DNA from: Candidatus Moraniibacteriota bacterium
Lineage (GTDB): Bacteria > Patescibacteriota > Minisyncoccia > Moranbacterales > DUUL01
DNA: 64,000 nucleotides
Reading direction: 5' to 3'
Assembly (NCBI GenBank): GCA_041583775.1
Contig: JBFHFF010000007.1
Location: 3,382 to 67,381 of the forward strand
In this document: positions 11,376 through 64,000 of the stretch, piece after piece
Position numbering within the stretch: position 1 is the first letter of the stretch
Layout: the number at the start of each line of letters is the position of its first letter
Position numbers and translations under genes: made by a program
Notes under the pieces: generated by a model
Database searches by the model: none
What the model was told of the DNA's origin: nothing
The model's input: only the letters and a program-made list of their open reading frames with translations

Positions 11376-11664
11376 GTTGTTTGGTTGTATTTAGTGTTTG
11401 ACTTGAGGTACTTTCCCTTTTTGAAGAGGGACGCAGGGGTTTTTTGTTTTTAGTGTGACTGATTTAATTTATAATTTTCAATTAGTTAATAAATAAAAAA
11501 CTAATTTTCAAAATTAGAAATTCAAAATTTGAGAAAACTCAAACACCAAACCGCTGGCACAGTCTGGATTCCTGCTGATGTTTACCCCACGAATGTTGGA
11601 GTAGGAATGGCAAAGGAAAAAGATTGAGAAATAAAATTTCATAAATAAATATAAAGCCTAAGAT

Positions 11665-12294
11665 ATGCCAAATCATAAAAAAGAAATAGTAATAGCCACT
11701 GAAAACAATGGCAAGATTGAAGAGCTTAAAAGAATTTTTGCAAACACTAGTTTTGTGCCGAGGTTTCTTAGTGAATTCACGGAACAATTAGGGGATACAA
11801 AAATCCTAGAAAATGCCAAAACTTTTGAAGGAAATGCATTGATAAAAGCAATTGTTGTGGGAGAAAAACTAGGAATACTAACTCTTGCAGATGATTCTGG
11901 TCTTTGTGTGGACGCTCTTGATGGAGACCCTGGTGTGTATTCTGCGAGATATTCCAACGAAGGAACTGATATTGCCAATTATGAAAAGCTACTAAAAGAA
12001 ATGATAAATGTTCCAAAGGAAAAGCGAGAATGTTATTATAATTGTACAGTTGCTATCTATGACCCGGAAACAAATTTCGTTGAAACTGTTTCTGGAAAAT
12101 GGCAGGGAAGGATAGCAAAGGAGCCACGTGGTAGCAAATCTTTCGGATATGCACCAATATTTTTGTCAGAAGATTCCAATTTCAAAAAAACCAATGCCGA
12201 ATTTGACCCAGAGGAATTGACAAATATGAATCACCGAGGAAAAGCTTTTCTAGGAGCGATTAAGATTTTGGATGAATACTTTAACTTAAAATAA
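11665..12294 (+). CDS. rdgB: non-canonical purine NTP pyrophosphatase (Ham1/RdgB/ITPase family)
   Basis: IATENNGKIEE...LADDSGLCVDALDGDPGVYSARY...FGYAPIF. Confidence 0.85.
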   Translation: MPNHKKEIVIATENNGKIEELKRIFANTSFVPRFLSEFTEQLGDTKILENAKTFEGNALIKAIVVGEKLGILTLADDSGLCVDALDGDPGVYSARYSNEGTDIANYEKLLKEMINVPKEKRECYYNCTVAIYDPETNFVETVSGKWQGRIAKEPRGSKSFGYAPIFLSEDSNFKKTNAEFDPEELTNMNHRGKAFLGAIKILDEYFNLK

Positions 12295-44680: not shown

Positions 44681-44852
44681 TCTTAGAATGCTCTTTAAGA
44701 TAGTTTCTTATTAAAATAACCAAGTTCATCATTCATCGCATTGTGCAATGAGTGATGAATAGTTTATTTTGAGTATTTTGACAATTTAAAATTGCACATT
44801 TATTTGTGCAATAAAAAACAGTTCAGACGGAAGTCTGAACAAGGAGGAGAAT

Positions 44853-46178
44853 ATGGAAAAAATATGGATGTTAAGGTTAAGTTTGTTGTTGATGGTTCTG
44901 CTGTTTGGGTCTCAGGCTCAAGCGCAGACGAATTTTTCGGGAAATTCAAAGGTGTCGGTTGAAAATGACACCAGTAATTTTCTTAACACCCAGGTAGTTG
45001 CTGGGGGGGCCAATGTCTCAATTGACTTTGGAAGTGGAGAGGCTGGTGCTGACAAGTATCCAGGGGGATTATTGGGCGCTTATTATATGGGCGTTCCTGA
45101 AACTCCAAACATCCCCTTGCCACAGGCAAGCAAAGGTGGTTCTTGGAGGTTGCAGGCTGCAGATTTAGTATTTGCAGGTCTTCCGGCCGTGCTAACTCCT
45201 GATTCCATCAGGAGTTATGAGATGAATAAAACCATCCTTGTTGATGACAAGGATGATAAAAAGGAGCTTCGTGAGAAATTCGATAAGGCGAAGCGAAAGC
45301 TTCTTCTGAGTGCAAATGTTGTTTTGCCGGTAGTATTACCGGAAACCAACAGTATTCGTTTGAGTAAGAAGCTTCCGGCGCCCAATGGGATGCTTTTTGG
45401 AGAAAGTTATTCTCCAGCAGGCAACCTAACCTTTCATACAGTGGAAGAACTTGATGGATGGTTTCAGAAAGCGGATATGAAAAGTCTCTCTTCCGGTGAT
45501 CTTGCCGTTATGTTGGCAAGTGCCGGAATGAAGTGCGGAGCATCATTGATGGTCCCGACCGGCCAAGGTGCTGAAAATATATTCAACACAACGGCCGGAA
45601 GTAAGAGCTTGAGCGGACTGCTCTCAAGCGTTACAAATCTCGCAGGACAAAACGCTTTGCCGTCAGCAGTGTCTGCTGGCGGAGGAATTTCCGGGACTGA
45701 CGGTAACAACAATGTCGTCCATCAACCATATTTAACAGTCGCCTTGTTTAAAAAAGAGGCAGGACCTGTTAAAGGAAAACTTCAAAGAGATATTTTCTAT
45801 GAACTGGTAATGTGCGCATTGCCAGTTCCGGAGCCAAATGGAAGACTTCGATTAGAGGTGGCGAATCAGATGCTTCAGAAATATTTCGATTCCGGTCGGA
45901 ATAATGTGGAGCCACTGATTCATGCCCAGGCTAATTTAGCCCAATCCATCAAGGATGGAAAAAAGTCTCGAATCATAAAAGAGGCTTTGGCTGCCACCTG
46001 GGCTGAAAGAGTGATACTTGTGGGGCGCGGTTATAAGCAAGGACTTATGACTGAAAGAGAGTATAAAAACTCTCACCTACACAACCTTAAGAAGGCAGAA
46101 GGAGCAATGTCTTCTTATGGATTTAAGTCCATAAGAACGCTTGATCTCTGCGCAAAGGATTTGTCAAATCTAAAATAA
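44853..46178 (+). CDS. secreted 441-aa hypothetical protein (island gene 2)
   Basis: Signal peptide MEKIWMLRLSLLLMVLLFGSQAQA; SD AAGGAGG; no recognisable domain. Confidence 0.7.
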   Translation: MEKIWMLRLSLLLMVLLFGSQAQAQTNFSGNSKVSVENDTSNFLNTQVVAGGANVSIDFGSGEAGADKYPGGLLGAYYMGVPETPNIPLPQASKGGSWRLQAADLVFAGLPAVLTPDSIRSYEMNKTILVDDKDDKKELREKFDKAKRKLLLSANVVLPVVLPETNSIRLSKKLPAPNGMLFGESYSPAGNLTFHTVEELDGWFQKADMKSLSSGDLAVMLASAGMKCGASLMVPTGQGAENIFNTTAGSKSLSGLLSSVTNLAGQNALPSAVSAGGGISGTDGNNNVVHQPYLTVALFKKEAGPVKGKLQRDIFYELVMCALPVPEPNGRLRLEVANQMLQKYFDSGRNNVEPLIHAQANLAQSIKDGKKSRIIKEALAATWAERVILVGRGYKQGLMTEREYKNSHLHNLKKAEGAMSSYGFKSIRTLDLCAKDLSNLK

Positions 46179-46252
46179 CCGAAACAATTCCCGCCCAAAC
46201 TTCGGTTTTGGCGGGAACTAAAAAAACTCTTGAAAAAGAGGGAGGAGTCAAC

Positions 46253-47086
46253 ATGGCTATTAAAAGGATTGCTTTTTCATGTTTCGTCGTAGTAATTTTA
46301 TTTTCTCAGCAAATCGTTTCCGCGGAAACGATTTCGCTTGAGCAAATAAGGCAGAAGATCCAGGCAGCGCAAACTGCCGGAGTTTCAATGGTCAAAAGCT
46401 CTGATATAAAAAAAGAGCTTAAGAATAAAAAACCCAAATCACAATTTGGGATTGCCCTTAGTAATTTTGGGCAAATTCCTCTTAGTGTTTTAAGGTTGAA
46501 AAAGGGAGAGACAGTTTCTGAGCTTTCGGCAGTGGTTTCAAAGAAATCATTCCGAAGAGTAATGTCTGGGAACGGCCTCTCTCCCAGTAAGTGTGAAAAA
46601 TTGCCTGTGGGATTTGAACTTTATATCCCAACGGCATGGCTTTTGCCAAAGCTGAGACTGTCACCAGTCGAGATTGGTGTTCTCCAGGAAAGTCTTGCGT
46701 CTGCCAAAGAGGCAGCAGCAGACCTTACGGCGGAGGTTGGTCATTTAAAAGAGGAGATCGTCATTAAAGACGGTCAAATCTCTGAGTTGACAGGAAATCT
46801 TTTGGCTGAGCAGACCGCTCATGCCAAGACGAAGGAAGAGCTTTTGGCTGAGCAGACCGCTCATGCCAAAACGAAAGCCAATCTTTCGGCCCCGGCTTCG
46901 GTGGTCAAAGCCAAGCTTTCGGCTCCAGGAGGATTGGAATTTATGAATAATCCAATCTCTTGGATCGCAATAGCCTTCTTGGCTATTGCAGCAACAGCCT
47001 CTTTGGTCTTTTTGAAAAGAGGCAAAGGAAAAAAAAAGCCTGAGCAGCGCAGGACTGCTGATATAGCAGAGCCTGCAGTCAGCTAA
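46253..47086 (+). CDS. secreted LysM-like protein with tandem repeat and C-terminal TM anchor plus basic tail (island gene 3)
   Basis: Signal peptide MAIKRIAFSCFVVVILFSQQIVSA; LysM-like KKGETVSELSA...L.IP; 2x LLAEQTAHAKTK; C-terminal ISWIAIAFLAIAATASLVFL-KRGKGKKK; SD GGAGG. Confidence 0.7.
   Translation: MAIKRIAFSCFVVVILFSQQIVSAETISLEQIRQKIQAAQTAGVSMVKSSDIKKELKNKKPKSQFGIALSNFGQIPLSVLRLKKGETVSELSAVVSKKSFRRVMSGNGLSPSKCEKLPVGFELYIPTAWLLPKLRLSPVEIGVLQESLASAKEAAADLTAEVGHLKEEIVIKDGQISELTGNLLAEQTAHAKTKEELLAEQTAHAKTKANLSAPASVVKAKLSAPGGLEFMNNPISWIAIAFLAIAATASLVFLKRGKGKKKPEQRRTADIAEPAVS
46799..46882 (+). repeat. 2 x 42-bp in-frame tandem repeat inside island gene 3
   Basis: cttttggctgagcagaccgctcatgccaaRacgaaRg... 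repeated head-to-tail. Confidence 0.8.
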
Positions 47087-47107
47087 TAATGGTCCGGAAT
47101 CTCGGAC

Positions 47108-55930: not shown

Positions 55931-56004
55931 GGGGGCGTAGCTCAGCTGGTTAGAGCGATTGCCTGTCACGCAATAGGTCGCCGGTTCGAGTCCGGTCGTC
56001 CCCG
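55931..56004 (+). tRNA. tRNA-Asp (anticodon GUC)
   Basis: Hand-folded: acceptor GGGGGCG/CGTCCCC (one G-U), anticodon stem ATTGC/GCAAT, loop CTGTCAC, T-loop TTCGAGT. Confidence 0.85.
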
Positions 56005-57528
56005 CATACAGAAAACAGCACTCTTTGGAGATGCTTTTTTTGTTTTAGTTATGCCAAAAAAAGAAGGTTCGAAGGTTCGATTTATGGTGCTAAATCCTTG
56101 CATGTCTTCGTGAAGCCAATTGAAGGGTTCGGAGAGTACAAAACTAGTGATTTTTTGATTCTCTATGGTGACATTCGAGGATAGAATAGAGATGATCTCT
56201 TTTTTAATCTTTGGGGTTCCATTTTCGAAAATATCACGAGCAGATTTAACAAATTCTGCTATGAGCTCAATCTTTCCAACAATGTCCTTTTTGTGTGTTT
56301 TTACGTTTTGTAATTTCTCTTCGATTTCCGCTTCTTCACTTCGAAGCTCTGAAAGCCTGCGATTGTAGATTTCAGTTGGGATATAATTATCAATAAACTT
56401 TTCAACCAAGGAGTCTTGCTTTTGATTATTCTGTTTTAAGATTTCCGCAAGCTTTGTTTCTGATTCTTTTCTGTATTTCTGTTGTATAAGCCACTTTTCC
56501 TTTGTTGCAGAAACAATCAAATCCAAAACTTCTGCATCAAAATTGATATTTTGCAAAACGTCTCCAAAGGATAAAATCAATTCTTTCTCCCTTAGATATT
56601 TTTGGGAACAATTCTTTGCTCCTCGTGATTTTGTGCAATGATAATAAACATGACCTTTTTGTTTTTCCGCTGTAATTTTTAATCCACATTCTCCGCAAGT
56701 CATCAGCCCTCTGAAGACAAAGTTTTTTGATTCTTTTACGCTATGAAGATATTTGAAAGGGAAGAGTAGTTTTTGAACTTTCTCGAATTTACTTTTTGTA
56801 ATAATAGGCAAATGACTGCCTTTGTGAATTTGTTCTTTCCAACGGAATAGACCGCAATAAATCGGATTGTTTAGCATACCTTGAATCACTGTTTTTCCAA
56901 TCCTTTTATTTTTATTTGAGCGGAGTCCGTCGTTGTATAATTCATCAGCCAATTCTCTTATTGAAAATTTCTTTGAGCTATACAACTCAAAGGCTTTTTT
57001 GATATAAAAGCTCTTACTTTTATCAAGCTCTAATTTCTTGGTTTTTAGATTTCTGATGTATCCGATGGGAGCACAGCCAGGGTATTCGCCCCGGCGAATC
57101 TTTTCAGCCAAACCTCGTTTTACATTCTTGCTTAAATCTCGAATGTATTGATTCGCCATTCCAAACTCTATGCTTGCAATAACAACATTATCCTCGGGAT
57201 TATAATCCCGTTCAAAAGTTTTAATTCTGCCAATGATTTCTTTTTGAAGTAGCCACTTGATCAATCCTTCATCAACTGGGTTACGAGCCAGCCGATCAAT
57301 TTTCCAACACAAGACACCAACCTTTTTATTTTGCTTGATAAATTCAATCATCTCATTAAACACTGGCCTCCCAGGTTCTTTAGCTGATTTTGACTCTTGG
57401 AAAAGCTTGACCACATTTAACTTTTCCCGCTTAGCAATTTCTTTCATCTCAATGATTTGAGACTGGATTGAAAGAGCTTGGCGGTCTTCACTTTCTGTTG
57501 ATTTTCTCACATAGATTACATAGTCCAT
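55966..57528 (-). CDS. large serine recombinase/integrase; C-terminal about 12 aa are antisense read-through of the tRNA-Asp 3' end, so the true stop is uncertain
   Basis: N-terminal resolvase domain YVIYVRKSTESEDRQ (catalytic Ser), recombinase domain, Zn-ribbon CGECG...YYHC, coiled-coil. Confidence 0.85.
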   Translation of the reverse strand: MDYVIYVRKSTESEDRQALSIQSQIIEMKEIAKREKLNVVKLFQESKSAKEPGRPVFNEMIEFIKQNKKVGVLCWKIDRLARNPVDEGLIKWLLQKEIIGRIKTFERDYNPEDNVVIASIEFGMANQYIRDLSKNVKRGLAEKIRRGEYPGCAPIGYIRNLKTKKLELDKSKSFYIKKAFELYSSKKFSIRELADELYNDGLRSNKNKRIGKTVIQGMLNNPIYCGLFRWKEQIHKGSHLPIITKSKFEKVQKLLFPFKYLHSVKESKNFVFRGLMTCGECGLKITAEKQKGHVYYHCTKSRGAKNCSQKYLREKELILSFGDVLQNINFDAEVLDLIVSATKEKWLIQQKYRKESETKLAEILKQNNQKQDSLVEKFIDNYIPTEIYNRRLSELRSEEAEIEEKLQNVKTHKKDIVGKIELIAEFVKSARDIFENGTPKIKKEIISILSSNVTIENQKITSFVLSEPFNWLHEDMQGFSTINRTFEPSFFGITKTKKASPKSAVFCMRGRPDSNRRPIA

Positions 57529-57534
57529 TTTGTT

Positions 57535-57660
57535 TTATTTCTTATGTTTGAGATATTCAAAAAACTCATGAAAAAAAATTAAGATGACCAAACCAAAGAG
57601 CATTATAAGAAGATGAGGTTCGGCTGGGGTAGCATCGCTATAATATTCAAAATAGTCCAT
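57535..57660 (-). CDS. 41-aa hydrophobic small ORF directly upstream of the recombinase, speculative
   Basis: MDYFEYYSDATPAEPHLLIMLFGLVILIFFHEFFEYLKHKK. Confidence 0.2.
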   Translation of the reverse strand: MDYFEYYSDATPAEPHLLIMLFGLVILIFFHEFFEYLKHKK

Positions 57661-57849
57661 TTAGGCATCTTATTTTTTTAATAGCAAGGTTTTTGGATAA
57701 CAAAAGGACGACCCTGCTTGGACACAATCTCCAGTAAGAAAATTGTAGCAAAGATCGTCCTTACGATCTCCTACTGGTTTATAGATTGTGTCCATCTCAA
57801 CTTTAACATATTTTTTGTAATTTTTAAAGGAATTTAACCCACTCCACTT

Positions 57850-58730
57850 CGCTACAACAAATTGCTCGTCTTTGAATTTTTAAATTCATAAAAATTCACT
57901 TCCAACGCAACTTTGTTTCCGCTTCGTTCCGTTCGTACATTGCTTGTTTCAGGCTGTTCAAAATGGTAAGCGTCCGGAGGGCACGCTATCCTCGAGCACT
58001 CCTCGAGACTTTGTTTTTCGTTCCTGTGCCACTCCGAAAAACAAGACTTCTCCGAGATGCTCTGCGTCGCTTTGGCATTGTTAGAAATTAACAATGCGCA
58101 TTGATTGTCACTGCATAAGCGCCAGCCTTCGGCATCCCCACCCGCCAGTATTTTATTGTTTGCCTGCTTGTTAAGGTTTCAGGTAGATTAGGGCAAAAGA
58201 CGTAAAGGGATTCTCTCCATTCCACTCAACTCACAAAATCAAAATTCAGAAAAATCCAAAATGGATGAAAAATGAAAAAGTTTTTTCGCTGTGCTTCAAA
58301 ACACTTTCATTTTTCCACAAAGGTCTTTTTTTTGTTTGGATTTTTTTCTGAATTTCGCTTTTGTTCGTTCAGTTCCATTCCGTTCACCCTCGCACAACAG
58401 AAATTTTGCGACATTCCAATTTTTCCTTCCTTCGCTTTCTGGCTTTTTTCTCGTGGGGACCCCCGCCCCTCTCCAAAAAATCTGAAATCGAAGAGGAAAA
58501 ATGGAACATCGCAAGAATTTGTGTTGTGCGACATCTTTTGCGTGCGTTGATTATGCGTTGTCCCCCCAAACCTGCTAGCCAAGGGCAACAAGCTCCGCGT
58601 CTGTAAACAATTTCCCGTTTGATGTGGCATTGCTTCCTTGGAACTGCCAGCTACCACAAACGGACGGCGGAAAACCTTATCCCTTGGAAAGCGCGCTGAA
58701 TAATTGTAATCGAAATTATTCAGCGTATGC
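57850..58730. other. GC-rich non-coding block; candidate large structured RNA or decayed foreign DNA
   Basis: Roughly 50% GC by eye versus about one-third in flanks; only short mutually overlapping ORFs in all six frames; perfect palindromes CAATGCGCATTG (58092-58103) and CGCTGAATAATT-N8-AATTATTCAGCG (58694-58725). Confidence 0.35.
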
Positions 58731-58884
58731 TTCGCTTAATCAACTTATATTTCTGAAAAGAACTGAAGAATAATATTACCCGATCGAATTCTGAAGCTAG
58801 GGTAGCATGGAAGCTGTTTCGAAGTTTGTTGGTTTCGACTGTTCCGCAATTTTAGAATTCTAAAAAGTGTTCTTTGAAAAAACA

Positions 58885-58940
58885 CTACCTTGTTTATACT
58901 TACTTATATATATACTTATACTTAAGTATAAGTAAGGTAG
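58885..58940 (-). terminator. long hairpin (20-bp perfect palindrome ACTTATACTTAAGTATAAGT flanked by CTACCTT/AAGGTAG) downstream of the minus-strand gene ending at 58960
   Basis: Palindrome 58914-58933; followed on the minus strand by TGTTTTTTC. Confidence 0.45.
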
Positions 58941-58959
58941 TTTAGAATCGATTTCTTAC

Positions 58960-59379
58960 TTACACTTTCTTTTTGCTTCTTTTTCTTTGTGATTTCATTA
59001 CCATCTCATGATTGAAATAGTTGTTCATTGCAGGGCAGTTAAGAAAATCAATAGTTCTGCAAAAAGTTTCTTCACCTTTTTTGCAATTAGATTTTAAACA
59101 GTCCCATTTAGAATCATCCCTTGTTAGCATTGGACATGTTTTCTTGTCCAATATGTGATCAAGAATTTTTTTGATGTCTACATCAATGCATTTTTCAATT
59201 AACTCTTCGCTGATTTCTTCTAGAGGTATCCCTTTGAGAATCCGGGCAGCTATTTTTTCTGCTGCAAGATCCTTAACATCTTCTTTTTCGCAAGCTTCTT
59301 TTTTTCGATTTTCTACAAATAGTTGCTTGTCTCTCTCTGATTTTTCCATTATTTCTTTTGCTGTCATTTTTTTTCTCAT
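58960..59379 (-). CDS. hypothetical protein with Cys-rich C-terminus (element cargo)
   Basis: KKTCPMLTRDDSKWDCLKSNCKKGEETFCRTIDFLNCP; N-terminus overlaps the upstream ORF. Confidence 0.45.
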   Translation of the reverse strand: MRKKMTAKEIMEKSERDKQLFVENRKKEACEKEDVKDLAAEKIAARILKGIPLEEISEELIEKCIDVDIKKILDHILDKKTCPMLTRDDSKWDCLKSNCKKGEETFCRTIDFLNCPAMNNYFNHEMVMKSQRKRSKKKV

Positions 59380-59647
59380 TTTTTTTATTTCTAATTATTA
59401 AATTATCTATATTTTTTTCAGCTGTCCTGATGACTTCGATAAGCCTTTCAAAACGCGCTGTGGCTTTTATAGCTCGATGTGGAGCAGTGCGCAGGTATTC
59501 TTTGGATAAAGATATTAAATCCTTAAAATATCCTTCATTTTGCCACGCTATGAGCCCCGTGCGCTTCTTAACCTTCCTTTCCAAGATAAAGTTGTTGTGG
59601 ATTATCTTAATCCTGACTTCTTTGTCGATTGGAATAATTTTTTCCAT
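59273..59647 (-). CDS. hypothetical protein (element cargo); 3' part may be a frame-overlap artefact
   Basis: MEKIIPIDKEVRIKIIHNNFILERKVKKRTGLIAWQNEGYF...; Lys/Arg-rich tail in the overlap zone. Confidence 0.35.
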   Translation of the reverse strand: MEKIIPIDKEVRIKIIHNNFILERKVKKRTGLIAWQNEGYFKDLISLSKEYLRTAPHRAIKATARFERLIEVIRTAEKNIDNLIIRNKKNEKKNDSKRNNGKIRERQATICRKSKKRSLRKRRC

Positions 59648-59888
59648 TGGCTTTATTTTTAATTTTTAAGAGATTCCTAGATGAATTAAGAATCTTGACG
59701 GTTAGCATTCCCACATTTGCTAATTGATCCAATGCTAATTCAGCTTGTTCAGCGGAAATTCTCCCCCCAGTTCTTTTGTCAATTATTTTCTGACATTTAA
59801 TGATTAAATTTTGGGAGTAGCGATTTTTCAAGCCATTGGATAAATAATTAACTATCCCTATATAAAAAAATCCTCTCCGATGAGTCAA
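59607..59888 (-). CDS. hypothetical protein (element cargo)
   Basis: 93-aa ORF; overlaps the next ORF by 41 nt. Confidence 0.35.
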   Translation of the reverse strand: MTHRRGFFYIGIVNYLSNGLKNRYSQNLIIKCQKIIDKRTGGRISAEQAELALDQLANVGMLTVKILNSSRNLLKIKNKANGKNYSNRQRSQD

Positions 59889-59984
59889 TGGAGAGGATTT
59901 GAGAGATTTTGATTTTGATTTTTTCCCTTAGATTACATAAAATAGAGGTCTGATTTCTCTATTTCTTGAAAAGTTGTTAGAAAT

Positions 59985-60929
59985 TCAGCTTAATCGAATA
60001 GTATTTGTTTCTTTATCGATTATGATTTCGAATGGTTTAATCTTATTTCCTTTTTGTAATGTTTTTTTAGCGTTTTCAAGTGCTTTTAATTTCTCATCTT
60101 GGTATGATTTAGAATCATAGTGCTTCCCATGTCGTATCGCTTCATAAGCATCATCAATCGAAATATTTTCATCAACTCCTTTTGTAGTTAGAAATTTTAA
60201 AAGTAGGTAATGCCTGGAATTAGCATTGCCAATTTTTTTTCTTTGGGAACTATTCTTTATTTGAAAAAAGCCAATATTGCCACTCAAAAAACATTTGGGA
60301 GATCTTTTTCTCTTAGTTTTTTCTTTTAATCCAGTTTCTTCTAAAAACTTATTTTTCACTTCTAGCGCTATTCTGTAAAAATTATCATTCTTGGGGTTGT
60401 TTAAATTATAAATAACTTTAATTTCAAGATATTTTTGTTTCTCTAAAATCAAAAGACTCTCAAATAATCTATAACCATTTTCAATTTCGTTATCATTTAA
60501 AGAAAGAGTTGTGCTTATTTTTCCTGCTAGCTTCTGTTCTATTTTGGCAATAAAATATCTTTTTTGTTCATTGAACTGATAATAATCCTCATCAATTGGT
60601 ATTAATTTTCCATCAGTAAAGCTTTTTAAATGTTTTTCTATCTCTTCCCAAATAACTTCAATTGATTTTTTTGTTATTTCAATTTCTGGATAATTATTTT
60701 TTATTAATTTTACTTTCAAACCAGTATCTCGCTCGAGGTTTAGAAGAAGATTGAGGAGCTTTTCAATTCCTAGTTTCTTGAATACAAGCCTTTTTAATTG
60801 ATCAGGTTCAATTATGCCTGGAGTTTTTTCTGGATAATCAATTAATTTCAAAAGCAAGAAGATGAAATCATTTGAAAATAAGCGATTTTGGAAAAGTGGC
60901 GTATTAGATTTTTTTGTTTTTTTATTCAC
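59985..60929 (-). CDS. hypothetical 314-aa protein, divergent from the downstream two-gene operon
   Basis: Clean ORF with AT-rich codon usage like the host; no recognisable motif. Confidence 0.55.
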   Translation of the reverse strand: MNKKTKKSNTPLFQNRLFSNDFIFLLLKLIDYPEKTPGIIEPDQLKRLVFKKLGIEKLLNLLLNLERDTGLKVKLIKNNYPEIEITKKSIEVIWEEIEKHLKSFTDGKLIPIDEDYYQFNEQKRYFIAKIEQKLAGKISTTLSLNDNEIENGYRLFESLLILEKQKYLEIKVIYNLNNPKNDNFYRIALEVKNKFLEETGLKEKTKRKRSPKCFLSGNIGFFQIKNSSQRKKIGNANSRHYLLLKFLTTKGVDENISIDDAYEAIRHGKHYDSKSYQDEKLKALENAKKTLQKGNKIKPFEIIIDKETNTIRLS

Positions 60930-60992: not shown

Positions 60993-61943
60993 ATGGGACA
61001 AAAAATTTCATCTGTAATGAAATCAAGACGAGGAATTTCATATCAAGACAAGTACGTGTTACTTGTTTTTCTTGAAGGTTTAATAGAGGATTTAAATTGT
61101 GAGTCAGATATTTGTTTGTTGGAAGCTAATACGGAATTTTCTTATGGAAGAAACCTTTCCCTTGACATTAGAATGTTATTTTCTGAAAAAGAAGTTATAT
61201 ATGAAGTCAAGACAGGAAAAGCATACAAGGACGATAAAAAGGAAATAGGGAAGTCTCTCGATAGTTTATATGAATATGCGCAAGGAAGATTAGATTTAGG
61301 TGAACCAATCGAGATTAGACTTGTTATTACTCCAGAATTTCGTGAAAAGATCATGTCAGTTTGGTCTCAATTATTGCATATTAATGAGGCTCATAGCGTG
61401 ACCAAAAAGAATTTTTATGGCAAAACAGTTGCTAGTTCCATAAAAGACTTAATAGAAAAACTTGATTTAAAGAAGCTCACCAAGAAAAATTTTGAAAGTT
61501 TTGTTAAAAAAATGAAAATTGAAGTTGGTCCAAAAGATGAATTGCGTGATGGTGGCTCTGAAATTGATGATAGGATACGAGGCAGGATAAGAATGTTATT
61601 GAAAAAATGTCGTTGTGAAAATAATGAAGTTGAAAGTCCTGTTGATTCTATTCAGCTTGAATTAATTGATGTGGTTCGCTTGAGTTCAGAGGGAAGAGTT
61701 ACGGATTTTAAGAAATCTATGATTGATAAACTAATTCAGTGTTTTGCAAGAAAAAAAATACTCGAGAACGCAAGCTATAAACAAGAATTTATCTTTTCTA
61801 ATGAAATAAGCGGATATGAAAAAGACATAAAGTCGCTTTTAACAAAAGAATCTGAGCCTGGTGAAGTCTCGGCGACTAATAGTATGGAAGGTAAACCTCT
61901 TGGAGAAAATAACCAGAATCTTAATGATATAATTCAAATCTAG
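60993..61943 (+). CDS. hypothetical protein with N-terminal PD-(D/E)xK-like (restriction-endonuclease-fold) signature
   Basis: YVLLVFLEGLIEDLNCESDICLLEANTEF...EVIYEVKTGKAY gives D...E-x-K spacing typical of Mrr-like nucleases; the rest has no recognisable domain. Confidence 0.45.
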   Translation: MGQKISSVMKSRRGISYQDKYVLLVFLEGLIEDLNCESDICLLEANTEFSYGRNLSLDIRMLFSEKEVIYEVKTGKAYKDDKKEIGKSLDSLYEYAQGRLDLGEPIEIRLVITPEFREKIMSVWSQLLHINEAHSVTKKNFYGKTVASSIKDLIEKLDLKKLTKKNFESFVKKMKIEVGPKDELRDGGSEIDDRIRGRIRMLLKKCRCENNEVESPVDSIQLELIDVVRLSSEGRVTDFKKSMIDKLIQCFARKKILENASYKQEFIFSNEISGYEKDIKSLLTKESEPGEVSATNSMEGKPLGENNQNLNDIIQI

Positions 61944-61944
61944 T

Positions 61945-64000
61945 ATGAAAACAGATCTATTAAAGAGAATAAATAACGTCATTAGTAAGTCTTCTTATAA
62001 AAAAAATAAGAAGGAAATTTTAAAATGGTTGAAAGATCAGAAATTGGCAGCATATTTAATAAACAAGCTTCAAAAAGAAAAATTAAATGATCTGAAATCG
62101 CTCGATTTTATTCTTGAAGAGGAAATTAAGAAAGAGAATATCTTTCCAATATTTCATATTCTGCAGGAAAATATCAGTGAGAAAAATTGTCAGTTTATCC
62201 TTGATTTTCTTTTTGATAAATTTCCAAGCGCAAAGGAAGAAAAATCACTACGAATAGATGATTTTATTGGTGGAACAGTTAATATTTTGGATATTATTAT
62301 CAAGCAATATCCGGAAAAAATAGAAAGTGTGTATCTGTTGATCAAGTTGATTTTAAGGGTTCATCAAAAGCATTTTAGAGAACTAAGGACACCTCGAAGT
62401 CACGATAAACAAATCATTGCTGATTTGTTACAGAAAATATACTTTGAATATAGAAAGCAAAAAAACATTAAAAGGATTGATGAAATAATCAATCTAATTG
62501 ACTTGGGGTTTGATTTGGTAAGTGATTATAGTGATATGTCTATGTATACTCCCAGTCATATTTTTGAAGTCCTTGAGGATTATATAAGTCTTGATTTTAA
62601 GGCGAACTTTGAAAAGATTTTTGAAATTATCTTAGTTCAATTTAAAAGCAAAGGCAGTTGGTTTGATGGTTGGGAAGGTTTTGGAGGAGGTATCTCGCAA
62701 TTTGGAATAAAATATCATATTAGCGATAGACATTTTGTTGGAAAGGTATTATCTCCTGCCTTGGAAAAGTTTTATTCTGAATCAAAAAATAAACAGGAAA
62801 CCTGGAAGTATATAAGAGAGTGTTATGTGTCAAGAAAGTCAGAAGAAGTCTCAAATAGAAAACCTGACTTTTTGACTCGTTCTACGATAGGTATTGTTTT
62901 GGATCGATATAAAAACTGTAGAGGCAAAAACAAAGAAGAGGCGTTTGAAATTTTGAGAGATTTTATGAAAATGGGGAAAGGAATTCCAAGTAAAACGGAT
63001 CTTATTTTTCAGAAGTTAAAAGAGACTGACTTTAATCTTGATAAAAAATGGAAATTTATAGAAATTTCTTTGAGCTTAGAATGGAATAAAGACAAGCTTC
63101 CTGCGAACATTTTTGTTGAACAGCTCGTTGCTGATTTTGGAAAAGAGAACTATAGACCAGCTATTGAACTTCAAAATAAATGGCTCGAAACAAGAGAGAA
63201 GAGAAAAAAGAAAGTGGGATTTATGGATGATTATACTGTGGAAGCGATTAAGTCTCTTTTGCAGGGAGAAAAAACAAGAAAAGAGGGTCTGAAATTTTTC
63301 GAGTCATATGTTTCAAAGGATATTTTCAGGAATAATTTAGAGCGTTTTGACGTTTTTGATGTTGCTCAAATTTTGGGTGGAATTTTGGAATCTAACTTTG
63401 ATTTTGGTCTTAAAATTTTAAACGAGATTTCTTCCAGAAAAAAAATGACAGAAAATGAACAGGTCTTGGTTTGTAATAGCATAAACAAGATTGACAACAA
63501 AGAGATTCTGCTAAAAATTTACAATAACTTTTTACTTCCTTTTCTTGAAAAGTTAGATAACAATATAGTTAGAATAGAAAGAAGAATTGATAATTCTCAT
63601 GTTAGGGGAGCCCTTGTTGACTTTGGTGATTTACTTGCAAAAGCAGGATATTTTAAAGAAGCTCTGTTTATTGCAGAAATCTTTATTGATGACAAAGATC
63701 CGATTATTGAAAACGAAGAAGATGATCCAAGGGGAGAGCACAATCTACATAAAAGAGCACAAAAAGGTGATGATTTGAATTCAATAACAAGCGTTCGTGG
63801 CAAAGTTTGTTGGCTTTTGCATGAATTTCCAGTTTTGGGTGGTAGAAAATATATTCCTAAAGCTGTGTCTTTAGTTAAAAAGTTATCGAAAGACAATAAT
63901 TATTATGTGAGAAAGCAGGCAACACTCCCTTTAGCAGAATTGGTTCGAGTGAGGAATGCAGTTTTACCAGAAGATAAAACAAAATGGTTTTTGAATAGAG
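61945..64000 (+). CDS. large (>680 aa, runs off the window) alpha-helical repeat-like hypothetical protein, co-oriented with 60993..61943
   Basis: Hand translation from ATG 61945 stays open to the window end; start overlaps the upstream TAG (TAGTATG); no Walker A/P-loop seen. Confidence 0.5.
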   Translation, partial: MKTDLLKRINNVISKSSYKKNKKEILKWLKDQKLAAYLINKLQKEKLNDLKSLDFILEEEIKKENIFPIFHILQENISEKNCQFILDFLFDKFPSAKEEKSLRIDDFIGGTVNILDIIIKQYPEKIESVYLLIKLILRVHQKHFRELRTPRSHDKQIIADLLQKIYFEYRKQKNIKRIDEIINLIDLGFDLVSDYSDMSMYTPSHIFEVLEDYISLDFKANFEKIFEIILVQFKSKGSWFDGWEGFGGGISQFGIKYHISDRHFVGKVLSPALEKFYSESKNKQETWKYIRECYVSRKSEEVSNRKPDFLTRSTIGIVLDRYKNCRGKNKEEAFEILRDFMKMGKGIPSKTDLIFQKLKETDFNLDKKWKFIEISLSLEWNKDKLPANIFVEQLVADFGKENYRPAIELQNKWLETREKRKKKVGFMDDYTVEAIKSLLQGEKTRKEGLKFFESYVSKDIFRNNLERFDVFDVAQILGGILESNFDFGLKILNEISSRKKMTENEQVLVCNSINKIDNKEILLKIYNNFLLPFLEKLDNNIVRIERRIDNSHVRGALVDFGDLLAKAGYFKEALFIAEIFIDDKDPIIENEEDDPRGEHNLHKRAQKGDDLNSITSVRGKVCWLLHEFPVLGGRKYIPKAVSLVKKLSKDNNYYVRKQATLPLAELVRVRNAVLPEDKTKWFLNR

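Follow-up and report, generated by a model that had tools for sequence, protein, structure and literature searches.

A tRNA-Asp gene overlapped antisense by a large serine recombinase gene in a Moranbacteria-like (CPR) genome: the probable attL of an 11.5-kb integrative element

The overlap between a tRNA-Asp gene and an antisense recombinase gene in a Moranbacteria-like (CPR) genome is very probably the attL of an 11.5-kb integrative element that was inserted by its own large serine recombinase (LSR, integrase, Int). It was found in a stretch of 64 kb of DNA, which we refer to as the window. A presence/absence polymorphism among related genomes together with a precise boundary argues for a site-specifically integrated island, such that the border between the conserved glycan locus and the island is now fixed. 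A mobile island at the tRNA also explains the orphan genes to its right: glycosyltransferase and Wzy genes are found left of the tRNA and genes lacking a significant Pfam match right of it, in agreement with the switch in gene content noted in the first-pass annotation. The features are collected in Table 1.

The tRNA-Asp gene was found intact by ARAGORN and scored 70 bits with the Rfam tRNA model (55931-56004). As initially described, a large serine recombinase ORF runs antisense over its 3' end. The stop codon of this ORF (55966-55968) lies within the tRNA gene, which results in an overlap of 40 nt. The final recombinase residues (..RGRPDSNRRPIA) represent the T arm and the acceptor strand of the tRNA read antisense, and only the last 8 residues come from the host arm. 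The tRNA trailer and terminator on the element side, read antisense, provide a 'KTKKA' stretch of the ORF. In all subfamily loci a hairpin followed by CTGTTTTTGTTTT was seen with compensatory stem changes, i.e. a covarying terminator. In most of these loci a further motif (m1) is located about 62-80 nt past the tRNA. Translation in frame 0 yields FEP/IEL, while L019, L020, L022 and many database homologues read the motif in a different frame as LRT/IRT.

The catalytic serine and the zinc ribbon recognised in the first-pass annotation were both confirmed. Pfam searches matched Int with Resolvase (PF00239, E 4e-19, residues 4-148), Recombinase (PF07508, 9e-17) and Zn_ribbon_recom (PF13408, 4e-10). 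Among 38 homologues the residues Y6, R8, K9 and S10 as well as C278, C281, C298 and C307 are invariant. Residues 216-337 match by sequence the A118 integrase structure 4KIS, and charged, heptad-like sequence is abundant over the approximately 100 residues past the zinc ribbon (about 330-430). The serine recombinase is the sole recombinase of the element, and no other element ORF gave a significant Pfam match. A tyrosine-integrase tRNA island was considered and rejected, since the recombinase is of the serine type according to Pfam.

Table 1. Coordinates of the tRNA gene, the attachment site and the element genes within the window
Feature	Coordinates	Strand	Remarks
tRNA-Asp(GTC), intact; host half (B arm) of attL	55931..56005	+	ARAGORN; Rfam
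T-loop GGTTCGAG of tRNA-Asp	55983-55990		
Large serine recombinase (Int), 520 aa	55966..57528	-	
Common core TCCGGTCGTCCCCGC	55991..56005	.	in attL, attR and empty attB; crossover bounded here
Element-borne tRNA trailer and intrinsic terminator	56006..56046	+	hairpin 56017-56035, T-run to 56046
GGTTCGAAGGTTCGA motif (m1), T-loop/P-arm look-alike in recombinase 3' end	56066..56080		conserved as DNA
Two 41-aa ORFs directly upstream of recombinase gene	57535-57660, 57670-57795	-	gene calls in L005
1.16-kb non-coding stretch, G+C above surroundings	57796..58959	.	no gene called
Conserved backbone, small ORFs among larger ones	58960..60929	-	
Cys-rich 139-aa backbone ORF	58960-59379	-	
314-aa backbone ORF	59985-60929	-	
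Variable cargo	60993..64000	+	continues past window
316-aa cargo ORF	60993-61943	+	
971-aa cargo ORF, first part	from 61945	+	cut by window end

An integration junction, as had been proposed, should be recognisable by comparison with relatives in which the tRNA-Asp is unoccupied, and such relatives were found. In the genome L089, which has the same Wzy/glycosyltransferase synteny as the window, an identical tRNA-Asp leads into a terminator of its own and then a host gene; recombinase and orphan genes are both missing. Furthermore, the site is empty in L093, L096, L103 and L104 and occupied in L094, while the Wzy protein is identical among all five. The sequences of L093 and L094 diverge at position 11640, exactly after ...GTCCGGTCGTCCCCGC (...CCCCGC), which sets the right limit of the core; ...GTCCCCGC is the last common sequence at this precise boundary between empty and occupied genomes of identical Wzy. 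From its 5' end through ...GTCGTCCCCGC the tRNA-Asp gene is identical in the empty-site genomes L089, L093, L096 and L097. The terminators that directly follow the tRNA in the empty sites of L093 and L089 are their own. Relatives that carry the downstream genes and lack the recombinase, a pattern named in the first-pass annotation as evidence against mobility, were not seen. The 30-mer break between the assemblies L006 and L004 was considered as a same-strain empty site but was discarded, since the co-occurring L089/L090 with identical tRNA-Asp explain the break.

The left limit of the core is set by attR, which can be read where L004/L005 terminate and also within L001. In agreement with the initial reading, the tRNA 3' end was not found to recur within the window, whether searched with up to 3 mismatches or by general repeat searches, because attR lies outside of it. 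The expectation that the other end of the element would be located beyond 64 kb was borne out by a downstream search in contigs that extend the window: L004 and L005, two independent assemblies 100% identical to the window, end with ...AAAAAGTTCGAAGATTG|TCCGGTCGTCCC, a second tRNA 3' end. This second core copy is located 11,492 bp to the right (window-equivalent 67483), with its first 12 nt visible at the contig ends. Searches starting from the 316-aa and 314-aa ORFs likewise yielded only contigs terminating at this repeat. In full, the attR of the window would read ...GTTCGAAGATTG followed by TCCGGTCGTCCCCGC. In L001, whose Int is 93% identical, both junctions are complete, in direct orientation and 11,247 bp apart. 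A near-identical copy of m1 (of the GTTCGAAG type) lies immediately left of the attR core.

The core block within the tRNA corresponds to the attachment core that had been suspected there. The direct repeat of the tRNA end at the junctions amounts to 15-17 nt and owes its presence to the mimicry of the tRNA end by the element-side arm. Tyrosine integrases are expected to produce a long direct repeat, while serine recombinases do not need one. Among 80 related loci, attR was seen only in L001, L045 and L077 using BLAST, 12-mers and fuzzy matches. It was not found in 13 kb of flank in L099, and a scan of IMG/VR with the attR pattern gave no match. The other subfamily elements probably exceed the 10-kb flank.

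One may ask whether the element is a fixed, immobile remnant, with the recombinase/tRNA overlap as a historical scar. Neither a circle nor a same-strain empty site was observed, and each of the four contigs with the Wzy protein of the window either is occupied or breaks off at the tRNA. In addition, scars build up at the tRNA site (the L001 repeat comprises 92 nt at 86% identity), and terminator-like relics are present in the 'empty' sites. However, the int ORF is of full length with every invariant residue present, and both att arms are intact. Close elements (Int 93% identical) are found in different flanks and with different cargo, and a sister element has conspecific empty and occupied genomes. 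We therefore consider an immobile remnant unlikely compared to an integrative element inserted by its own LSR.

The geometry of the attachment sites provides a hint on how the tRNA end may be recognized. In the window, L001, L045 and L077 the distance between the T-loop-like motif of the P arm and the core exceeds that between the real T-loop and the core by exactly 5 nt, and the attP-like site of L079 has the same +5 nt placement; the rule thus has the support of four or five right-hand junctions that represent about three lineages. In silico the span between the outer motif edge and the core end measures 20-22 bp in attB and 27 bp in attP, with half-site sizes estimated at about 20 bp in attB and about 25-27 bp in attP. 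For LSRs the ZD motif lies at positions 16-24 of attP and 11-19 of attB, as shown for the LI integrase, and attP is about 10 bp longer than attB (PMC3783163). Since the +5 placement fits this rule, it suggests that the T-loop acts as the motif for the zinc-ribbon domain, with the crossover in the last tRNA bases. A crossover within the T-loop itself was ruled out, because the spacing between GTTCGA and TCCGG is 5 nt longer in attR. In the right half-sites P' and B' no clear inverted motif copy was found, with weak and inconsistent dyad matches, such that the sites look asymmetric. Asymmetric att sites are unusual for LSRs.

[quoted passage not shown] In the proposed mechanism Int dimers would bind attB, which comprises the T arm, the acceptor strand and the trailer of the tRNA, and attP on the excised circle. 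The left arm of attP would copy approximately the last 15 nt of the tRNA and carry the T-loop look-alike (AAAAAGTTCGAAG) 5 bp farther out. The 2-bp exchange site would fall within the final bases of the tRNA gene, so that the tRNA is left intact and just its trailer is replaced by the element, which supplies its own terminator for the tRNA. The predicted attP junction of the circle is ...GTTCGAAGATTGTCCGGTCGTCCCCGCATACAGAAAAC..., with AAAAAGTTCGAAGATTGTCCGGTCGTCCCCGCATACAGAAAACAGC as the junction sequence to be expected.

The int ORF has no stop of its own because attP sits on its 3' end. It would read through motif, terminator and core into whichever arm is joined, and would change from 520 aa in the integrated state to a predicted 548 aa in the circle. 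Such a read-through tail could be functional, either by swapping the Int C-terminus with the state (...DSNRRPIA when integrated versus a different 36-aa tail in the circle) or by leaving an int mRNA that ends stopless at the terminator; in both cases Int activity would be state-dependent. Since the ORF spans the attP core, the tail necessarily changes. The overlapping arrangement is found clade-wide with C-terminal tails of the antisense-tRNA type also in database homologues, and on the int strand the terminator hairpin is placed between an A-run and a short U-run. Against a function, conservation at the protein level among the 38 homologues stops near residue 475, and the last ~45 codons are DNA elements in translation, namely the GTTCGAAG motif, the covarying terminator and the tRNA end, with the conserved stretches kept as DNA in differing frames. 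Tail length and stop position vary widely, with some homologues stopping just before the tRNA and others far through it. A functional tail thus appears improbable; most likely the tail is a by-product and not a functional domain.

Upstream of the recombinase gene the element contains a small backbone. The first of the two 41-aa ORFs (57535-57660) encodes a hydrophobic protein and is kept in L001. Position 57660, at which the region described in the first-pass annotation ended, is the start of this ORF immediately upstream of the recombinase gene. The adjacent non-coding stretch (92% identity to L001) comprises a near-perfect hairpin of ~140 nt (58385-58535, -65 kcal/mol, z = -6.3), a region that is also conserved in L018 and L043. 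In at least 10 subfamily loci, homologues of the backbone lie upstream of the recombinase gene at a distance of 1.5-3.5 kb. The 139-aa ORF gave the one PHROGs match of the element, which was weak (E 0.004) and of unknown function. The family of the 314-aa protein comprises just 35 representative clusters in 1.84 billion proteins and gave no match in a metagenome scan; a structure model of this protein yielded weak, non-significant winged-helix-like matches. No RDF candidate was recognised in the element, whose conserved small ORFs comprise 41, 139 and 91-93 aa.

Past the window the cargo continues with ORFs of 176, 70, 166 and 369 aa up to attR at 67483 (L004/L005). The cargo ORFs had no significant Pfam or PHROGs match. 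PADLOC gave weak matches for the 176-aa ORF (PycTM, 1.6e-4) and the 166-aa ORF (PD-Lambda-3_A, 5e-7). The cargo consists of orphan genes, possibly defence genes. Between the window and L001 the backbone genes are common while the cargo is exchanged, and L001 carries a defence-type helicase-nuclease.

On the basis of sequence comparison, the recombinase is a member of a large, undescribed CPR clade with tRNA 3' ends as its insertion sites. In 59 of the 80 related loci, all of which come from CPR genome bins, a convergent tRNA of one of 12 types is located at or over the int 3' end. The int stop codon lies inside the tRNA in 37 of the 80, and 8 further contigs end right after int. A literature search found no account of CPR serine recombinases at tRNA genes, and to our knowledge few CPR mobile elements have been characterised. 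A known mechanism is here employed in an unusual, clade-wide manner, and the island family seems widespread, compact (5-11.5 kb) and non-viral, with a small private backbone and swappable cargo.

The element is very unlikely to be a prophage or a phage satellite, as opposed to a plain integrative island. LSRs are typical of temperate phages, and the structured non-coding region could serve as a replication origin or packaging signal. However, no capsid, terminase, portal or tail protein was matched in PHROGs or Pfam, and the size of 5-11.5 kb, like the helicase-nuclease cargo of L001, disfavours a phage. Moreover, the clade is nearly absent from the 2.9 million contigs of IMG/VR, with a single match at 32% identity. 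A crossover at the GTTCGAAG motif ~65 nt downstream (56066-56080), by which the tRNA 3' end and terminator would be carried within the site, could be suspected from the conservation of this motif as DNA whatever the reading frame, its near-identical copy beside the attR core and the L001 repeat that reaches through a degenerate copy, but it was rejected as very unlikely, since conspecific empty and occupied sequences part immediately after ...CCCCGC and not 65 nt later, the empty L093 and L089 have their own terminators directly past the tRNA, and the junction identity of L045 and L077 stops at the discriminator base.

For an integrative island with its crossover at the tRNA end, we tentatively propose that the CPR-specific LSR clade may employ the T-loop common to all tRNAs (GTTCGA) as the attB motif for the zinc-ribbon domain and mimic it 5 bp farther out in attP, such that retargeting between tRNAs would need little beyond a changed 12-15-nt inner P arm that matches the 3' end of the new tRNA. 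Serine integrases are valued tools for genome engineering, with each of them being bound to one site. If the proposal is true, the clade would represent a naturally semi-programmable serine integrase family that exchanges strands at the last bases of tRNA genes, offering orthogonal integrases with predictable sites in every cell. The constant outer motif combined with a varied inner arm would then constitute a natural test bed for the evolution of LSR specificity. These claims rest on the comparison of sequences.

Int resembles the phage-type serine integrases (A118/LI, Bxb1, phiC31, SPbeta) in its domain order, with the catalytic Ser10 domain, the recombinase domain and a zinc ribbon with a putative long helical insert. 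The inferred site sizes are alike as well, and the outer motif is shifted by +5 bp in attP as for the LI integrase. The classic phage-type enzymes use protein-coding or intergenic targets with very short common cores. Here, in contrast, a tRNA 3' end is targeted with a common core of 15-17 nt, the int ORF crosses attP, and the right half-sites are without clear symmetry; the elements are non-phage and reside in CPR bacteria, with no RDF recognised.

Islands that integrate into tRNA genes have been grouped into sublocation classes (Williams 2002, as cited in PMC12884075). The element shares with the Islander/TIGER tyrosine-integrase islands the site at the tRNA 3' end, an integrase gene adjoining the tRNA, variable cargo, an element-borne copy of the tRNA 3' end that keeps the tRNA intact and a direct repeat of this tRNA portion at the far end. 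It differs from them by its serine recombinase, by a crossover inferred to fall in the terminal bases of the tRNA gene, and by the replacement of trailer and terminator instead of a large part of the tRNA. Among the tycheposons and cryptic tRNA-integrated elements of Prochlorococcus, 27 of 937 have an LSR in the place of the tyrosine recombinase (Hackl et al., bioRxiv 10.1101/2020.12.28.424599). Tycheposons resemble the present element in organisation, being likewise small islands integrated at tRNA genes, whose backbone is modular and whose cargo can be swapped; in the element described here, no genes for replication were recognised. They belong to another phylum, and while LSRs are the exception there, tRNA ends are the target of an entire LSR clade here.

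The first-pass annotation had described a tRNA-Asp gene with a serine recombinase gene running antisense across its 3' end, and ARAGORN, Rfam, the ORF call and Pfam all confirm this arrangement (see table). The stop codon of the recombinase gene int lies 40 nt within the tRNA gene, and the final residues of the protein (Int), ..RGRPDSNRRPIA, are the acceptor strand and T arm of tRNA-Asp read antisense. Residues Y6, R8, K9 and S10 of Int as well as four zinc-ribbon cysteines were invariant in a comparison of 38 homologues, and Int gave a sequence match to the A118 serine integrase structure. The described switch in gene content, from polysaccharide genes to orphans, was likewise found: glycosyltransferase and Wzy genes lie to the left of tRNA-Asp, while the ORFs to its right had no significant Pfam match and, in PHROGs, a single weak one (139-aa ORF, E 0.004).

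Features at the tRNA-Asp junction and in neighbouring regions (window positions)
Feature	Position	Strand	Remarks
Candidate variable cassette	44800-47100		441- and 292-aa ORFs without Pfam match; 44-47% G+C vs ~33% around
tRNA-Asp(GTC)	55931-56005	+	ARAGORN; Rfam concurs (70 bits)
int, 520 aa	55966-57528	-	Pfam Resolvase, Recombinase and Zn_ribbon_recom domains
int stop codon	55966-55968	-	
Core (predicted crossover interval)	55991-56005		TCCGGTCGTCCCCGC
GTTCGAAG(R)TT(S) motif	56066-56080		within int 3' end
Gene-free stretch, 1.16 kb	57796-58959		G+C-richer; 92% identical to sister element L001
Near-perfect hairpin, ~140 nt	58385-58535		-65 kcal/mol, z = -6.3

Within the 64-kb window, repeat searches did not find the tRNA 3' end a second time, and the other end of the element had been expected beyond the window. 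Via exact-protein look-ups, two sequencing runs (SRR29257458, SRR29257459) yielded contigs that match the window at 100% identity. One of them (L006) terminates at window position 56007, the tRNA end. Contig L004 and the record behind L005 extend beyond the window and both terminate at the equivalent of position 67494, in ...GAAAGCGAAAAAGTTCGAAGATTG|TCCGGTCGTCCC. This junction is the second tRNA 3'-end copy, which lies 11,492 bp rightward of its counterpart; being a repeat, it breaks the assemblies. A complete, closely related element was found in contig L001 (Int 93% identical). One end of it comprises tRNA-Asp and int; the other, at a distance of 11,247 bp, is marked by a direct repeat of 92 nt (86% identity) beginning at the same TCCGG as in the window. 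Both elements have the two ends and the backbone in common and differ in their central cargo.

Unoccupied tRNA-Asp sites in relatives, a comparison that had been proposed, were obtained via homologues of the flanking Wzy protein. In L089 (GCA_041596615.1; Wzy 78% identical), gene order is the same as in the window and tRNA-Asp is identical; a terminator of its own and then a host gene come after the tRNA, and a recombinase is absent. The same host gene flanks the right end of the L001 element. Among contigs with an identical Wzy (P0125), the site is empty in L093, L096 and the JGI contigs L103 and L104, and occupied in L094, where a recombinase gene directly follows the tRNA. Downstream of the tRNA, L093 carries a 259-aa gene, MazE, Sua5/YrdC and a permease. 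The sequences of L093 (empty) and L094 (occupied) agree completely through ...GTCCGGTCGTCCCCGC and are unrelated from there on. L097 and L098 (Wzy 65%) provide further empty sites, and L091 (Wzy 74%) is occupied by an element with a 539-aa recombinase and other cargo. On this comparison the element is a gain at a conserved site, and its boundary falls on the final one or two bases of the tRNA gene. Judged from the L093/L094 boundary together with the left limit from attR, the right-end junction, the crossover must fall inside the core. The L094/L091 element provides an encoded CCA (..CCCCGCCA) where the native trailer reads ..CCCCGCAT (L094 11640 vs L093 11640), such that integration alters whether the CCA end of the tRNA is genome-encoded.

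Thousands of Int relatives were found, nearly all in Moranbacteria and other candidate phyla radiation (CPR) bins, and the C-terminal ends of very many of them (RGRPDSNRRP, RERRDSDPRPPQ, GRRDSNPESLGPKPSALAVTLRP etc.) are antisense tRNA. Among 80 recombinase loci from species-representative genomes, 59 had a convergent tRNA gene at the int 3' end, with the int stop codon inside the tRNA in 37. The tRNA types were Gln (24), Ser (13), Trp (7), Asp (4), Val (3) and Asn (2), with Pro, Met, Tyr, Arg, Glu and Gly seen once each. Eight loci were uninformative, the contig ending directly after int; of the 13 loci without a called tRNA, at least five have a junction with a tRNA-like 3' end that escaped gene calling. 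IMG/VR has hardly any members of the clade (one match, 32% identity). Many contigs with a CPR-type recombinase and CPR-like context (L007, L008, L011-L015 and others) are labelled 'uncultured Bdellovibrionales', 'Gammaproteobacteria' or 'Rickettsiales'; these public taxon labels look unreliable.

At every available right junction, four or five from about three lineages, the distance from the core to a T-loop look-alike in the element-side (P) arm exceeds that to the true tRNA T-loop by exactly 5 nt. In the window the host arm reads GTTCGA-G-TCCGG and the element arm GTTCGA-AGATTG-TCCGG; in L045, a related recombinase locus, they read GTTCGAATCT-CACAC and GTTCCAACTTCATCC-CACAC, and L001 and L077 have the 5-nt offset likewise. 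The outer portion of the element arm, AAAAAG(G)TTC(G/C)AA, is kept between subfamilies only ~35-40% identical in protein and also occurs at an attP-like site beside int in L079. For serine integrases, Rutherford et al. (2013; PMC3783163) place the motif bound by the zinc-ribbon domain at positions 16-24 of the half-site in attP and the same motif at 11-19 in attB; the 5-nt offset corresponds to this published signature separating attP from attB. Counting 19-20 bp from the T-loop places the attB centre in the last few bases of the tRNA, in agreement with the boundary from empty and occupied sites. We propose that the universal T-loop serves as outer recognition motif, and that the variable T-stem and acceptor strand would form the inner part of the site, copied by the P arm of each element. 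Exchange would occur at the tRNA end, so that the tRNA would survive with a new trailer and terminator supplied by the element. The right half-sites showed no convincing inverted motif, and no recombination directionality factor was recognised in the element.

In L079 (~11480-11705) and L076 (~1860-2100) a P-type arm (AAAAAAGTTCGAACATTGATCGAAAACGTCAGC) ahead of int is joined directly to the usual P' sequence. The arrangement resembles an intact attP, lies ~190 nt from tRNA-Gln with a G+C-rich insert between, and has only CAGC in common with the tRNA end; it may be a tandem or rearranged site.

Protein-level conservation of Int ends near residue 475 (..EPFxWLxED), and the apparent motifs beyond are DNA elements in translation. 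The 'KTKTA' stretch is the T-run of the intrinsic terminator 3' of the tRNA, whose hairpin stems vary among loci with compensatory changes. 'FEP' is the DNA motif GTTCGAAG(G), which one reading frame renders as FEP/IEL and another as LRT/IRT (L019, L020, L022 and many database homologues). The last residues correspond to tRNA core and arm. In a circle formed by excision, the ORF would cross the core into the other arm, giving a predicted Int of 548 aa with a different ending. The tail, in our view, is a by-product of the position of attP on the int 3' end; a regulatory role is conceivable. In most subfamily loci a motif GTTCGAAG(R)TT(S) follows an A-run ~62-80 nt past the tRNA, in different reading frames of the int 3' end. 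The P-arm motif at attR (L004 ~11489-11501, left of the core) has almost the same sequence, and the copy at this second position within int may serve as an accessory site for Int, have a regulatory function or be a relic.

Downstream of tRNA-Asp, the 'empty' sites contain short stretches resembling the trailer end of the element. At the same offset, the L093 terminator (11640-11680) can be aligned ~5.6 sd above the level of shuffled controls, L097 (~11872-11896) has a copy of the T-run/A-run segment, and the 92-nt copy in the L001 right flank (200-291 vs 11447-11538) includes a degenerate GTTCGAAG motif. These weak similarities suggest repeated cycles of integration and decay that left scars. 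Within the glycan gene cluster, the place of the 441- and 292-aa ORFs is taken by other genes in the syntenic relatives L089, L091 and L093; the two ORFs therefore look like a variable cassette, possibly transferred.

The elements range from 5 to 11.5 kb. Their backbone comprises int, one or two 41-aa ORFs, the non-coding stretch, a Cys-rich 139-aa ORF and a 314-aa protein. Among 1.84 billion proteins, no more than 35 representative clusters belong to the family of the 314-aa protein, whose structure model gave weak winged-helix-like matches only. The hairpin region is conserved in L001, L018 (75%) and L043, and may function as a replication origin or encode a structured RNA; the Rfam miRNA-precursor matches there were sub-threshold artefacts of the hairpin. 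The cargo varies. In the window element it consists of orphan ORFs of 316, 971, 176, 70, 166 and 369 aa, two with weak PADLOC matches. In L001 (1652-6589) it is a 1645-aa SF1 helicase with a C-terminal MTES_1575/DUF559 nuclease, matching the PADLOC defence candidates PDC-S37 (6e-67) and Hhe (8e-37), so islands of this type can carry defence genes. PHROGs recognised no phage genes in the element, which is best described as an integrative island of small size that may carry defence genes.

Int is a bona fide large serine recombinase (LSR), and the event an ordinary site-specific integration. The 3' ends of tRNA genes are classically the domain of tyrosine integrases, whereas here a serine recombinase uses this target. 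LSRs at tRNA genes are not unheard of: among tRNA-integrated elements of Prochlorococcus, 27 of 937 carry an LSR (Hackl et al., bioRxiv 10.1101/2020.12.28.424599). In the literature we found no description of the present recombinase clade or of T-loop-based recognition. Besides this tRNA target, two aspects are unusual: in scale, an entire CPR clade shares the habit, across at least 12 tRNA types; in architecture, attP lies on the 3' end of int, the P arm mimics the tRNA and a tRNA terminator is borne by the element.
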